Program-made: the position numbers and the translations under genes
The notes under the pieces: generated by a model
What the model was told of the DNA's origin: nothing
Database searches by the model: none
The model's input: only the letters and a program-made list of their open reading frames with translations
Virus record (IMG/VR): IMGVR_UViG_2713896905_000006
From: a virus
Taxonomy: Duplodnaviria > Heunggongvirae > Uroviricota > Caudoviricetes
DNA: 4,389 bases
Reading direction: 5' to 3' (one strand)
Shown here: piece after piece, positions 308-4,389 of the stretch
How the letters are laid out: each line of letters begins with the position of its first letter
Numbering within the stretch: position 1 is the stretch's first letter

Positions 308-517
<210 letters not shown>

Positions 518-605: not shown

Positions 606-1322
<717 letters not shown>

Positions 1323-1408: not shown

Positions 1409-1987
1409 TTGAGTATACCAACTGTCTCTCTATGGAATGAGATGGGGTTAATCCCCCCAATAGACGAGGCTGATCCTACAAGCCATACTCGTTCCCCATA
1501 CAAAATGGATATAGTACGCTTTGTTAGTACTTTTTCGCTTAGCCCTGCAAGGATTAAAATCCTTAAGGGTTTTCTTAACTTTCGTGTTTCACTCACTCAA
1601 GCAGGGCTAGTTGAAGGTTTTCAGTGGGTAGATGGAAGCTTCACAGAACATATTGAACTTATTGAAAAAAGGCCACCGAATGATGTCGATGTTGTGACCT
1701 TTTTTCAATTCAGTAATGGCGATAATGATGCAATCGTAATCGGTAGAAAGCCAGAGCTATTTGATCATGATTTTGTTAAGAAGGAGTTTTTCGTAGATTC
1801 CTACTTCCAAGAACTTAATCTACCAAGTCATGAGCTTGTTGAAATGACTGTATATTGGTACAGTATGTGGGCACATAGACGCGATCTGTCGTGGAAGGGA
1901 TTTATCCAAATCCCGTTAAACCCACAACTTGATGTTGTGGCAATGACTATACTTAATTCGGCTACTACTGAGGGGGTCAAACAATGA
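1409..1987 (+). CDS. Hypothetical protein, cargo gene 1 of 2 in the rexAB slot; possible nucleotidyltransferase-fold protein
   Basis: 192-codon ORF beginning at TTG 1409 with AAAGG (1397-1401) 7 nt upstream. Alternative in-frame ATG starts at 1442 and 1505. Contains G-S (nt 1634-1639) followed 14 residues later by D-V-D-V-V (nt 1682-1696), the pattern of minimal Pol-beta-type nucleotidyltransferases. Stop TGA overlaps the start of the next gene. No similarity to lambda RexA or RexB that I can recognise. Confidence 0.6.
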   Translation: MSIPTVSLWNEMGLIPPIDEADPTSHTRSPYKMDIVRFVSTFSLSPARIKILKGFLNFRVSLTQAGLVEGFQWVDGSFTEHIELIEKRPPNDVDVVTFFQFSNGDNDAIVIGRKPELFDHDFVKKEFFVDSYFQELNLPSHELVEMTVYWYSMWAHRRDLSWKGFIQIPLNPQLDVVAMTILNSATTEGVKQ

Positions 1988-2913
1988 ATCGTAATGATTA
2001 TGTTTTCGCTCTCAGTGAGCGCGAGCAAATAAGTAATCTATTAAAAAATATGCCAACAAGTCATTCTATTAGCCGAAAAAGCTTAGAAGACCGTCTGGAG
2101 AAAGTTGAGCGATTAATTTCACAAGCTGACGTTCGAGAACATGAACCTACGCATGCTGTGTTAACTTTTAGAGGCCCAACAGTAGTTGGCACGCATGGCA
2201 TTTCAGCAGTATTTGGAACAAAAGCTATATCTTGTTTTAATGATGCAATAGCTTACTTGGCAACCTCTTTCAATGGCCCACTTCCTGCATCAGGCAAGAT
2301 ACCAAACATAGAAAATAATCATCTCATGATTACCGCGTCAGCCCGTGGTTCTTTCGGATTCGTACTTGAAGAGTTTAGACCTGATGCTCCTCTTGAATTC
2401 GATGAAGAAACCCCAGTAGCAAAAGCTATTAATAAGGCCAGAAAAATATTTCAGGCAAGCTTGGATAATGATGATGAAGAATTGTCTGATGCTATAGAAA
2501 ACTTAGACTCTCGGGCCTTAGATAAAATCAGAGCATTCATTCATTATCTGCATGAAAATAAAACAGTTTTTACACTTAAAAGCCAAGGTTTTAGCATCGT
2601 TTTTAGAGAGCCAAAACAGCTTGAAGCTGTATATCAACATCTCAGCAATGATAACATTCAGCAGGAAAAAATTATTGAGAACGTTATATTTTTGGGAACT
2701 CTTCCTAACAAGCGCCAATGTGAATTTATAGTTTTAGGTAACACTGATATCAGAACCGCTAGCATTGACAAAGCTGTAGATGACCCAGATATTATAAACA
2801 AGCACTTAGGAAGCGTTGCAACAGCCACGTTCCTGAAAAAAACTGTTGGTAAGGGCAAGCCCAGATACACTCTGGTTTCTCGACCTCAATGGGATATTAA
2901 ATCAATCGATTAG
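1984..2913 (+). CDS. Hypothetical protein, cargo gene 2 of 2 in the rexAB slot; no recognisable domain
   Basis: 309-aa ORF, ATG at 1984 overlapping the upstream stop (caaacaATGAatcg), implying translational coupling. No transmembrane-length hydrophobic stretch. Acidic segment DNDDEELSDAIENLDSRALD. Followed immediately by an intrinsic terminator. Confidence 0.75.
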   Translation: MNRNDYVFALSEREQISNLLKNMPTSHSISRKSLEDRLEKVERLISQADVREHEPTHAVLTFRGPTVVGTHGISAVFGTKAISCFNDAIAYLATSFNGPLPASGKIPNIENNHLMITASARGSFGFVLEEFRPDAPLEFDEETPVAKAINKARKIFQASLDNDDEELSDAIENLDSRALDKIRAFIHYLHENKTVFTLKSQGFSIVFREPKQLEAVYQHLSNDNIQQEKIIENVIFLGTLPNKRQCEFIVLGNTDIRTASIDKAVDDPDIINKHLGSVATATFLKKTVGKGKPRYTLVSRPQWDIKSID

Positions 2914-2926
2914 AATGAGCCCCTTC

Positions 2927-2955
2927 AGCCCGGCCTCCGCGCCGGGTTTTCTTTT
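2927..2955 (+). terminator. Rho-independent terminator ending the cI / cargo operon
   Basis: GC-rich stem cccggc (2929-2934) / gccggg (2941-2946) with loop ctccgc, followed by ttttctttt (2947-2955). T-run is on the + strand side only. Lies 14 nt after the ORF2 stop. Confidence 0.7.
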
Positions 2956-3105
2956 ACCATCAGTCCGTCAAAAACACACCTAACGAATTGTATTTATTGA
3001 ATAAATATAAATCACACTTATCACATTGCGCAATTCAGCTCCTACACATCCAGACTAGCTCTGCAAAACTTTAAAAAAATAAATCAATAGTAAAAACATG
3101 CACAT

Positions 3106-3168
3106 AACCATTTGCGGTAATATTTTATCTCTAGCGGTGTTGACGAAAATACCTCCGGCGGTGATACT
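3106..3168 (+). promoter_or_regulatory. Left operator region OL3 (3106-3122), OL2 (3126-3142), OL1 (3150-3166) with promoter pL
   Basis: Three 17-bp sites aaccatttgcggtaata, tatctctagcggtgttg, tacctccggcggtgata, the same family as the OR sites. pL -35 ttgacg (3140-3145), 17-bp spacer, -10 gatact (3163-3168). Near-identical to lambda oL/pL as recalled. Directs + strand transcription into nutL and N. Confidence 0.85.
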
Positions 3169-3214
3169 AAACACATCAGCAGGACGCTGGAAGCTAAATG
3201 GAACAGACTGGCAG

Positions 3215-3259
3215 GCTCTTTAAACAACGTCGACTCTCGACTACGTGGCTGAAAAGCCA
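3215..3259 (+). promoter_or_regulatory. nutL-like N-utilisation site (boxA, spacer hairpin, boxB)
   Basis: GCTCTTTAA (3215-3223, boxA-like), hairpin gtcga-ctc-tcgac (3229-3241), tacg, then tggct-gaaa-agcca hairpin (3246-3259, boxB-like). Lies in the pL leader upstream of N. Parallel architecture to the nutR copy. Confidence 0.55.
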
Positions 3260-3357
3260 GATCACCCAACCACATAAGCTGTGGGATGCAATGCCGAAGC
3301 AACCGTCTCAGGAGGAGCTTCGAGATTGCATCGCCAAAGTTTATTCGGGAGGAATCT

Positions 3358-3630
3358 ATGTCCAGAAAAACAGAATTTAAAGGCACCGCAGCTTCTCGCC
3401 GTAGAGCTCGTCGCGCAAATCTGCAAAGTCAGGAGGCGATTAGCTCCGACAAGCTACACAGGCCAACCCCTTCACGAGTGGTCTTGCAATGCAAGCGCAA
3501 ACCAGCAATGAGAGCAGAAGTTATAACTCTGACAACGTTGACCAGAAAATATGAAGGTTCAACTTGTCTTCCGAACGTAGCTCTTTACGCGGCAGGCTAC
3601 CGGAAATCAAAACAACTGACAGCGAGGTAA
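3358..3630 (+). CDS. N: N-family transcription antiterminator (arginine-rich motif; phage 21 N / P22 gp24-like)
   Basis: 90-aa product MSRKTEFKGTAASRRRARRANLQ...ALYAAGYRKSKQLTAR. Strong ribosome-binding site gggagga 5-8 nt upstream of ATG 3358. Arginine-rich N-terminus typical of N proteins. The N-terminus resembles phage 21 N and the C-terminus resembles P22 gp24, both from memory. First gene after pL/nutL, as expected. The upstream in-frame ATG at 3286 has no ribosome-binding site and is rejected as the start. Confidence 0.8.
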   Translation: MSRKTEFKGTAASRRRARRANLQSQEAISSDKLHRPTPSRVVLQCKRKPAMRAEVITLTTLTRKYEGSTCLPNVALYAAGYRKSKQLTAR

Positions 3631-3688
3631 CCTGCACTGTTCGCCAGAAAATGAAATTAGGCAGCAAACCACTTATTTGAGGTGATAT

Positions 3689-4138
3689 ATGGAAGAACAG
3701 GCAAATAAGATTCTCATAGAACTATTGCAAAAAGCCAGTAATGGAATAGACGCGGCTGTCTCATTTAGCCAGGCACAGATTCCTGATGTTGTTCATCAGT
3801 TACTGCTATGGAATATGGTTGACAGTCTGATTAAAACATTAATAGCCATTTTAACAATCCCGCTGGTTTTCTGGTTTATGAAGAAACAGTGCCAAAAAGT
3901 TGAAATTGGTAAGTTCGATGATGAAGGATGGTCATGGGATAAGGGGAAGACTAAATACAAACCGACTATGATTTGGGAAAGTAACTGTGAGATTAGTTTT
4001 CTAATCTTACCATTAGCTGCAGTTTTTGTTCTGTGGGTAAGTTTTATTATTGCTGTAGTAACCAATATGACTTGGTTAAAAATTTGGCTGGCCCCAAAGC
4101 TTTACCTTATCGAATATGCAGCATCATTGGTTAAGTAA
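3689..4138 (+). CDS. Hypothetical small membrane protein with two predicted transmembrane helices
   Basis: 149-aa ORF with ribosome-binding site gaggtga (3679-3685) before ATG 3689. Two hydrophobic segments, LIKTLIAILTIPLVFWFM and ISFLILPLAAVFVLWVSFIIAVV. Sits in the early-left operon directly downstream of N, where lambdoid phages carry accessory and exclusion genes. Not recognised by me as a named protein. Confidence 0.65.
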   Translation: MEEQANKILIELLQKASNGIDAAVSFSQAQIPDVVHQLLLWNMVDSLIKTLIAILTIPLVFWFMKKQCQKVEIGKFDDEGWSWDKGKTKYKPTMIWESNCEISFLILPLAAVFVLWVSFIIAVVTNMTWLKIWLAPKLYLIEYAASLVK

Positions 4139-4142
4139 TTTT

Positions 4143-4168
4143 AGGCCGCATAGTCGGCCTTTATTTTT
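4143..4168 (+). terminator. Rho-independent terminator-like hairpin after the membrane protein gene
   Basis: Stem aggccg (4143-4148) / cggcct (4155-4160), loop catagt, followed by ttattttt (4161-4168). Begins 5 nt after the stop codon. Would be read through under N antitermination. Confidence 0.55.
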
Positions 4169-4287
4169 GGCATAAACAACAGAATAAACACTGCACTGTG
4201 CATTCATTCCAACGAGTGAATACACGGAGAAATGTCGCTCATAATTAAACAGGAGCCGACTTGTTCTGATTATTGGAAATCTTCTTT

Positions 4288-4314
4288 GCCCTCCGATGTG
4301 AGGGCAATTTTTTA
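4288..4314 (+). terminator. Second terminator-like hairpin upstream of the next ORF
   Basis: Stem gccctc (4288-4293) / gagggc (4300-4305), loop cgatgt, followed by aatttttta (4306-4314). Confidence 0.4.
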
Positions 4315-4333
4315 TCTATGAGGATATGAATAG

Positions 4334-4389
4334 ATGTCAAACATCAAAAAATACATCATTGATTACGACTGGAAAGCATCAATAGAAAT
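4334..4389 (+). CDS. Hypothetical protein, N-terminal fragment (3' end cut by window edge)
   Basis: ATG at 4334 preceded by gagga (4319-4323). Open frame MSNIKKYIIDYDWKASIE runs to the window end. Too short to assign. Confidence 0.3.
   Translation, partial: MSNIKKYIIDYDWKASIE

Follow-up and report, generated by a model that had tools for sequence, protein, structure and literature searches.

A small open reading frame (ORF) of 149 codons was analysed in a 4,389-bp stretch of lambdoid prophage DNA (hereafter the window), which is the complete contig BBVV01000037.1 of assembly GCA_001514905.1, and the evidence points to a dispensable, mobile and stand-alone accessory membrane protein. The product belongs to the family of PHROG 3054 and of gp34 of Shigella phage Sf6, whose design is unusual in that strongly constrained termini surround a recombining transmembrane hairpin. 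As for its function, we tentatively favour, at somewhat less than even chances, a superinfection-exclusion or membrane-level competition factor that would work like T4 Imm while being unrelated to it.

The gene, its family and the predicted protein

Judged by its conservation, the ORF at 3689-4138 is a real gene and not a chance ORF, since full-length homologues are many and the ratio of non-synonymous to synonymous substitution rates (dN/dS) is far below 1 in its frame on the plus strand. Family conservation and this ratio also ruled out a spurious ORF and the alternative that the opposite-strand 89-aa ORF (3796-4065) is the true gene. A Shine-Dalgarno sequence (GAGGTG, 3679-3684) is separated from the ATG by 4 nt, and the N-terminal end holds a single methionine, the next one being residue 43. 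An earlier reading of the window, made by a model from the sequence only, had placed the ORF directly after the antiterminator gene N, and the PF25694 gene was indeed found 58 nt upstream.

The protein matched PHROG 3054 over its full length (E=1.8e-60, residues 1-149 against profile positions 1-137 of 137), a group filed under the category 'unknown function', and the same profile was matched by 40 of 40 aligned relatives. Both motifs described below and a two-helix, single-domain layout were likewise found, as expected of a member of this family. The only named relative is the 'gene 34 protein' of Sf6 (48% identity), and the best name in any source was 'Phage transmembrane protein' (UniProt). 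Sf6 gp34 shares with the window protein its layout, its motifs and an early-left place after N and ral, but its hairpin and loop allele is unalignable, amino-acid identity being 12% in the middle and 86-89% at the ends. This kinship explains no function, the family itself being uncharacterised.

Full-length homologues were detected by tblastn in 177 phage records, and two large protein searches returned 520 and 1,304 relatives. A profile search against 1.84 billion cluster representatives (clusters at 50% identity) reached 5,115 clusters at E<=1e-3 and 2,364 at E<=1e-10, with the best 150 representatives all between 121 and 184 aa. The named hosts of the phages are Gamma- and Betaproteobacteria, and the few matching contigs binned to other phyla may be binning artefacts. 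Roughly 0.35% of the genomes of isolated phages carry the gene, and of 5,426 complete E. coli genomes, 268 (about 5%) have a close relative. A protein identical to that of the window is already public.

The Pfam scan of the ORF protein gave no family at E<=1, and that of the 40 aligned members only scattered noise at E<=10; NCBIfam gave no match, PADLOC-DB 2.0 no defence-system model at E<=1, and the sequence-profile search of the PDB only noise from G-protein-coupled receptors at E>1. The sequence-only reading had failed to match the protein to a named one, and the same outcome was obtained here in Pfam, NCBIfam, PADLOC and the PDB, the uncharacterised PHROG 3054 and Sf6 gene 34 being the only matches. 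A housekeeping membrane family, which would have spoken against its proposal of a host-takeover or exclusion gene, was looked for in Pfam and NCBIfam and none was matched. No paper on any family member came up in the literature under the accession, the PHROG id, peptide motifs or 'Sf6 gp34', and topical searches on phage exclusion returned general works only, none on the family. The 'gene 34' of the epsilon34 paper is another gene and not Sf6 gene 34.

Kyte-Doolittle hydropathy in 19-residue windows gave maxima of 2.01 (aa 46-64) and 2.82 (aa 106-124), the latter within a second hydrophobic segment at aa 101-127. Both segments are well over the usual membrane threshold, whereas the hydrophobicity of the first 45 or so residues is too low for a membrane span and the inter-helix segment is strongly hydrophilic (minimum -2.02). 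The two hydrophobic helices and the soluble N-terminal region of about 45 aa proposed beforehand were thus recovered, and the product is predicted to be a small inner-membrane protein with two passes. The charged, tryptophan-bearing loop of the same proposal is also present (DDEGWSWDKGKTKYK, aa 76-90), yet it falls in the least conserved part of the family and is lineage-specific.

In alignments of 14, 40 and 70 diverse members (A1, A3 and A4), conservation was concentrated in the first ~45 and the last ~22 residues of the protein, which are presumably its functional parts. Within the N-terminal module, four residues (F26, P32, L38 and L39) are fully or almost fully invariant and three others (V34, Q37 and W41) nearly so, and the motif F26 ... 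Q-I-P-D-V-x-x-Q-L-L-x-W is present in the window protein. The C-terminal module carries the motif W-L-K/Q-I-W-x-A-P-K-x-Y-L-x-E-Y-A-x-x-L, in which I132, P136, L140 and E142 are invariant in A3 and A4, A135 and K137 are invariant in one of these and at least 90% conserved in the other, and Y143, A144 and L147 are invariant or nearly so; as a test of family membership it was used in the form I-x-x-A-P-K-x-x-L-x-E-Y-A-x-x-L, which the window protein contains. All the invariant columns of the family are found in the window protein. By contrast, the hairpin formed by transmembrane helix 1 (TM1), the loop and transmembrane helix 2 (TM2) keeps its hydrophobicity and not its sequence, and the loop ranges from 8 to 67 aa among 135 representatives. 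Because hairpin sequence and loop length vary in this way, the tryptophan-rich charged loop is, on this comparison, a lineage trait and not a family feature. No N-terminal hydrophobic extension or signal peptide, C-terminal extension or fused domain was found in the sequences checked for them.

As the protein would cross the membrane twice, both conserved modules should lie on the same side of it. In the 135 representatives, the N-terminal tail has a net charge of -3.4 and a density of lysine plus arginine of 0.048, compared with 0.178 in the loop, where about two of the first 8 residues after TM1 are lysine or arginine. Because the tail is acidic and poor in these residues and the loop next to TM1 is rich in them, the charges lean slightly towards an N-out/C-out topology, with the loop cytoplasmic and the termini periplasmic. 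AlphaFold2 models built from 40 and 70 sequences were all-helical, with predicted local distance difference test (pLDDT) values of 61.2 and 63.7; the transmembrane helices were their sole reasonably confident parts, and the packing of the terminal modules is untrustworthy. Fold searches returned uncharacterised family members only in BFVD and nothing below E=3.5 in the PDB.

Exchange of the hairpin and distribution of the gene

When dN/dS was calculated by part with Nei-Gojobori comparisons, both terminal modules gave low values (Table 1). Between the two closest middle alleles, TM1 was almost invariant, the loop gave 0.20-0.28 and TM2 0.83-1.15, the last from small counts.

DNA identity also differed by part, and in opposite senses in different relatives. 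Compared with phage PhiR46_1, the window gene was 79% identical at the ends and 95% in the middle, whereas with E. coli WP9 and H10407 the ends were 93-100% identical and the middle 82%; E. coli TUM9803 carries a WP9-type middle between PhiR46-type ends. The ends shared 77-89% identity with Sf6, UTI89 and E. coli W, whose middle was unalignable (32-38%), and many E. coli genomes matched the query at both ends only. Among 84 alleles of 149 codons each, all four combinations of two N-types with two middle types occur, and so do all four of the middle types with two C-types; C-type 1 accompanied N-type 1 in every case, and C-type 0 accompanied N-type 0 in nearly every case. Because identity is mosaic by part and every N/middle and middle/C combination was found, the conserved ends serve as recombination handles for a hairpin cassette that is exchanged within the gene in enterobacterial prophages. 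In the Ralstonia jumbo phage RsoM2USA, three tandem paralogues (Table 1) have conserved ends and loops of quite different lengths. Overlapping opposite-strand ORFs annotated at these paralogues are probable over-calls.

To describe where relatives sit, 80 close relatives in IMG/VR were inspected, with recognisable neighbours at 65 loci. The gene occupied an early-left operon position in about 58 of the 65, after one of three N types or ral and before ea10 or cIII, and in 7/65 it was found in the slot between the lysis genes and the small terminase gene (Rz-Nu1). The copies in this second slot travel with other moron-like ORFs. The gene order N, sieB (on the opposite strand), ral, homologue and ea10 in E. 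coli H10407 shows that the homologue coexists with Ral and SieB; it also lies beside the anti-restriction gene ral in Sf6 and UTI89. Further afield, one distant member lies in a siphovirus contig, with head-completion genes on one side and tail genes on the other, and a Rahnella prophage has another on the opposite strand, flanked by portal and terminase genes. In N4-like phages, phi92-like phages (including BASEL phage Bas60) and many Vibrio and Pseudomonas phages, the gene is found in early or DNA-metabolism regions. CUS-3 is also among the tractable carriers. No partner gene recurred beside the family gene in the contexts examined.

The neighbours in virulent phages are other accessory genes, such as those for a NADAR protein and a YadA-anchor outer-membrane protein. 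The latter is the product of the gene next after the homologue in the virulent, N4-like Salmonella phage FSL SP-058 (L003 4427-5416), where it is annotated as 'tail protein'; with collagen-triple-helix repeats (PF01391, E=2.5e-22) and a YadA-like anchor (PF03895, E=1.4e-19), it is by its domains a trimeric-autotransporter-like envelope protein of the early or middle region. In the phi92-like Escherichia phage VEcB, genes for an AAA/STAND-like ATPase, a CapR plus T5orf172 nuclease-like protein and a NADAR-domain protein (PF08719, E=5.8e-36; PADLOC PDC-M42C, E=2e-34) lie directly downstream of the homologue (L002 4433-7176), and on these matches the stretch is an accessory defence- or counter-defence-like cluster of a virulent phage.

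These locations bear on two possible functions. If it tethered phage DNA replication or recombination complexes to the membrane, a role for which p16.7 of Bacillus phage phi29 is a precedent, the protein would be at home among the genes for RusA, a DUF2800 PD-(D/E)XK nuclease, thymidylate synthase and dUTPase that surround it in several virulent phages, and upstream of gam, bet and exo or of erf and ssb in lambdoid ones. We nevertheless consider such a role very unlikely, given that the soluble modules are acidic (N-module net charge -3.4), which speaks against DNA binding, that no replication partner is fixed, that late and structural positions occur too, and that the gene is absent from most relatives of the carrier phages.

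A holin, antiholin or lysis-timing regulator is suggested by the frequency of holins and pinholins among small phage proteins with two transmembrane helices, and by the position of the gene downstream of a holin-lysozyme-Rz cassette in PhiR46_1 and E. coli TUM9803. However, neither the ORF protein nor the 40 members gave a Pfam holin family, the window lists no lysis gene, and both the window and most contexts are early and far from lysis genes. The family gene was never found inside a lysis cassette, though a few copies lie downstream of one, and the phages concerned already have an annotated holin. In addition, conserved termini around a variable transmembrane core are not normal for holins. 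Membership of the holins or pinholins was rejected on the missing holin match, the lack of an adjacent endolysin, the position in the operon of the early-left promoter PL and the absence of the dual-start motif, and any lysis-related role is highly improbable.

Cassette boundaries, expression and surroundings

Homology of the window to VT2-Sakai, phage 2B8 and lambda runs through N, ends at about 3694-3697 and resumes at 4150-4156. Positions 3664-3697 are 91% identical to lambda 34381-34349, just before orf28, and positions 4150-4389 match lambda 34087-33849, which runs from the stop codon of ral into ea10, at 95% identity. Because the flanking homology to lambda breaks off and resumes at these points, the ORF is a discrete cassette in the exact place of lambda orf28-ral. 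A linker of about 20-34 nt containing TGAGGTGATATATGGAAGAA forms the 5' boundary and recurs ahead of unrelated cassettes in different lambdoid phages: it precedes orf28 in lambda (34349-34381) and H0090 in VT2-Sakai, and is found twice in E. coli WP9 (L012 9681-9701 and 9908-9928), before a ral remnant and before the homologue of the window gene. From this distribution, it behaves as a mosaic boundary sequence. The 3' boundary is marked by a terminator-like hairpin (Table 1).

Table 1. Coordinates of the gene, its parts and boundaries, and of neighbouring features in the window and in other genomes
Feature	Position	Strand	Remarks
Studied ORF, 149 aa plus stop, ATG start	3689..4138	+	Sf6 gp34 / PHROG 3054 family
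Conserved acidic N-terminal module, aa 1-45	3689..3823	+	dN/dS 0.02-0.19; alignments A1, A3, A4
TM1, aa 46-64	3824..3880	+	Hydropathy 2.01; helical in both AlphaFold2 models, pLDDT 73-80
Lineage-specific loop, aa 65-100	3881..3988	+	Holds DDEGWSWDKGKTKYK; basic beside TM1
TM2, aa 101-127	3989..4069	+	Hydropathy peak 2.82
Conserved C-terminal amphipathic module, aa 128-149	4070..4135	+	dN/dS 0.02-0.09
Conserved mosaic linker, 5' cassette boundary	3664..3697	+	Shine-Dalgarno, ATG and first three codons (ATG GAA GAA)
Intrinsic-terminator-like hairpin AGGCCGCATAGTCGGCCT plus T run	4143..4170	+	5 nt past the stop; 3' cassette boundary
cII, 3' part			Carried in the window
Cro gene	308-508	-	PF09048
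CI repressor, lambda-type	609-1322		HTH_3 plus Peptidase_S24
DUF6932 protein gene	1409-1987	+	PF22014 E=2e-26; PADLOC candidate PDC-M63A E=2e-10; phrog_9194
309-aa protein gene	1984-2913	+	phrog_18731; without Pfam family
Terminator-like hairpin after the 1409-2913 gene pair	2927-2948
PL-type early-left promoter, TTGACG-17-GATACT	3140..3168	+	Between the cI-side genes and N, as expected of PL
N antiterminator, 933W/P22 gp24 type	3358..3630	+	PF25694 N_peptide E=3.4e-32, residues 1-90; phrog_271
ea10 start	4334		After the 149-aa ORF
RsoM2USA paralogues (L005)	2121-2645, 2860-3357, 3364-3900
'TonB family protein', 108 aa, E. coli TUM9803 (L024)	3382-3708
286-aa protein, PhiR46_1 (L009)	4017-4877		No Pfam or PADLOC match

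Neither a promoter-like site nor a terminator-like hairpin was found between the stop codon of N (3630) and the ATG (3689), and PL was the one sigma-70-like site in positions 2900-4389, compared with 3.8 expected from shuffles. Since no such site separates the two genes, the ORF is probably co-transcribed with N from PL, ahead of N-dependent read-through into ea10-cIII-kil-gam-bet-exo. With PL as the only promoter-like site upstream, it would probably be silent in a repressed lysogen and expressed as soon as infection or induction begins. Rho-dependent termination and weak internal promoters may also act at the ORF. A simple sigma-70 scan upstream of the Rahnella and PhiR46_1 copies gave no convincing site, so only the orientation of the genes argues for an independent expression of these copies.

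Very early expression through probable co-transcription with N would suit a counter-defence protein that neutralises, in the first minutes of infection, an abortive-infection or defence effector of the host or of a prophage which acts on the membrane, for instance as an ion channel or by forming pores. Its adjacency to ral in Sf6, UTI89 and H10407 agrees with this function, as does the NADAR-domain protein close by in VEcB, NADAR proteins being candidate anti-ADP-ribosylation counter-defence factors, and a variable region with gene exchange is consistent with an arms race. However, no defence or anti-defence partner co-occurs consistently, the late-operon and opposite-strand copies argue for a function not bound to the first minutes of infection, and no anti-defence protein that crosses the membrane twice is known to us, so that counter-defence is considered quite unlikely.

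The window as a whole is a lambdoid prophage immunity region of the lambda-immunity type, in reversed orientation with respect to the lambda map, and the operon in related contigs extends into ea10 (DUF2528), cIII, kil, gam, bet and exo. The position of rexAB in lambda is occupied by two other genes (1409-1987 and 1984-2913), which lie directly after cI with overlapping stop and start and differ from rexA-rexB. This may be a candidate defence pair, expressed by the prophage and transcribed together with cI. In related E. coli prophages, a gene of the 'Nmad5 family' is annotated within the stretch that matches the pair.

A 60-aa ORF (3198-3380, plus strand) lies between PL and N and overlaps the start of N, its counterpart in E. 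coli WP9 being annotated in RefSeq as a frameshifted hypothetical protein. Between PL and N there is also a hairpin (3229-3241, GTCGACTCTCGAC), a possible boxB of nutL for the N type of the window. The N gene shows 95% DNA identity to that of VT2-Sakai. On the plus strand at 3609-3677, outside the frame of N and spanning the end of this 933W/P22-type gene and the intergenic region, a remnant resembles the C-terminus of lambda-type N (KTTDSEVTCTVRQKMKLGSKPLI against KPGERGITCSGRQKIKGKSIPLI of lambda; 48% identity over 23 aa, pairwise E=8e-5), which suggests an old recombination joint of two N types.

Exclusion as a tentative function and comparison with known systems

The sequence-only reading had proposed that a gene in this position might act in superinfection exclusion or host takeover, and this idea fits the accessory cassette, the neighbourhood of ral and sieB, the early regions of virulent phages and the recombining variable region. 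Of the two, exclusion is the one we tentatively prefer, because a constrained core and an exchangeable region are combined in a gene that sits in the lambdoid competition neighbourhood (ral, sieB) and early in virulent phages. The protein would insert into the inner membrane, and later-arriving phages would then fail to complete genome entry. The conserved termini would form a common core, oligomerising or touching a conserved envelope component, and the lineage-specific hairpin and loop would decide which incoming phages are affected. By analogy, most characterised proteins of similar profile exclude superinfecting phages by blocking genome entry at the inner membrane.

Several observations weigh against exclusion. 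Comparisons by hhalign showed no detectable homology to T4 Imm, HK97 gp15 or lambda SieB, nor did scans with Pfam families and PADLOC models, and the literature searches brought up no paper on a family member. The ORF has no promoter-like site of its own, and so would give no protection to a lysogen as classical prophage exclusion genes do. The charges flanking TM2 disagree with those flanking TM1, and the C-terminal tail bears lysines too; the confidence of the AlphaFold2 models is low, hence they lend no structural support. Moreover, the most conserved parts are common to phages whose hosts are Escherichia, Vibrio, Pseudomonas or Ralstonia and whose tails are quite dissimilar, and since both tails and hosts differ so widely, a conserved host partner or self-assembly explains the shared termini more easily than recognition of proteins of the incoming phage. 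The variable hairpin could be merely a loosely constrained membrane anchor.

In the host-takeover alternative, the termini would bind and modulate a conserved inner-membrane machine of the host (for example the divisome, FtsH/HflKC, Sec/YidC, or transport and energy functions) in favour of lytic growth, with the hairpin only as anchor. The extreme conservation of the termini across phages of distant hosts, the near-neutral, anchor-like evolution of TM2 and the early location beside other PL-operon genes that act on the host, such as cIII and kil, all agree with it, and SPO1 gp56, a small membrane-anchored early inhibitor of host division, provides a precedent. On the other hand, late-operon, structural-module and opposite-strand moron positions are unexpected for a core function, and so are three tandem divergent paralogues. 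The loop is purified within a lineage yet replaced between lineages, which suggests more than a spacer, and the low share of isolated phage genomes with the gene (about 0.35%) marks it as dispensable. Host takeover is rather unlikely on this balance.

The window gene is in itself an ordinary hypothetical gene, a member of a catalogued but uncharacterised family. The findings of note concern the family: its size, which places it among the larger phage families without a Pfam model or a function (5,115 clusters at 50% identity), its spread over temperate (lambdoid, P22-like) and virulent (N4-like, phi92-like, jumbo) phages of many Gram-negative hosts, the design of conserved ends around a swappable hairpin, and the precise cassette boundaries. 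Tractable model systems carry the gene, namely lambdoid prophages, Sf6, CUS-3 and BASEL phage Bas60. If it encodes an exclusion factor, a widespread mechanism would be added to the short list of understood ones, and because the protein would be made with N at the start of infection, it could be relevant to superinfection and to the way in which multiplicity of infection influences lambdoid decisions. A bolder proposal, which we regard as unlikely, is that Sf6 gp34 and PHROG 3054 represent a widespread, unrecognised class of modular membrane 'immunity' proteins of temperate and virulent Gram-negative phages. The conserved N- and C-terminal ends would engage a universal envelope component or assemble the protein, and the hairpins, swapped at these ends and multiplied as tandem paralogues in the jumbo phage, would set the specificity of exclusion.

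Among the characterised systems, T4 Imm is a small early inner-membrane protein with a periplasmic N-terminus that binds the tape-measure protein and stops genome entry, and an Imm-like tape-measure mechanism has been proposed for HK97 gp15 (bioRxiv 10.64898/2026.03.06.709160). The window protein resembles Imm as a small, early-expressed phage protein of the inner membrane, and the N-out orientation of Imm matches the topology weakly favoured here. As an anecdotal parallel, imm adjoins gene 42 (annotated thymidylate synthase / dCMP hydroxymethylase), and a Vibrio N4-like homologue of the window gene follows thymidylate synthase. Imm differs in its size (83-94 aa), its four-helix core and its lack of conserved N- and C-terminal modules, and membership of its family (Imm_superinfect) was rejected (hhalign of A4 against Imm, probability 0.2%; no Pfam match at E<=1). 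HK97 gp15 is likewise a small membrane protein on a mobile moron and lies in the tail-gene region, as does the homologue in the siphovirus contig, but it has 62 aa, its own terminators and a late-operon position, in contrast to the PL operon position of the window gene; a relationship was rejected (hhalign probability 0.4%).

P22 SieA, a small inner-membrane protein of about 160 aa that acts on ejection proteins and blocks DNA injection, comes from a lambdoid or P22-like phage and occurs in strongly diverged types (PMC10883804). It has three or four transmembrane helices and the motif FxRYPxEAxxFNK, is located between genes 16 and 9 and is expressed by the prophage, whereas the window protein has two predicted helices, lacks the motif and is encoded in the PL operon; by these features, taken from PMC10883804, membership was rejected. 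SieB of lambda and P22 shares the neighbourhood between N and cIII with the window gene, but lies on the opposite strand. Membership was rejected here as well (hhalign against lambda SieB, probability 0.2%; no Pfam match at E<=1), and since E. coli H10407 carries both sieB and a homologue of the window gene, the two are not alternatives to each other.

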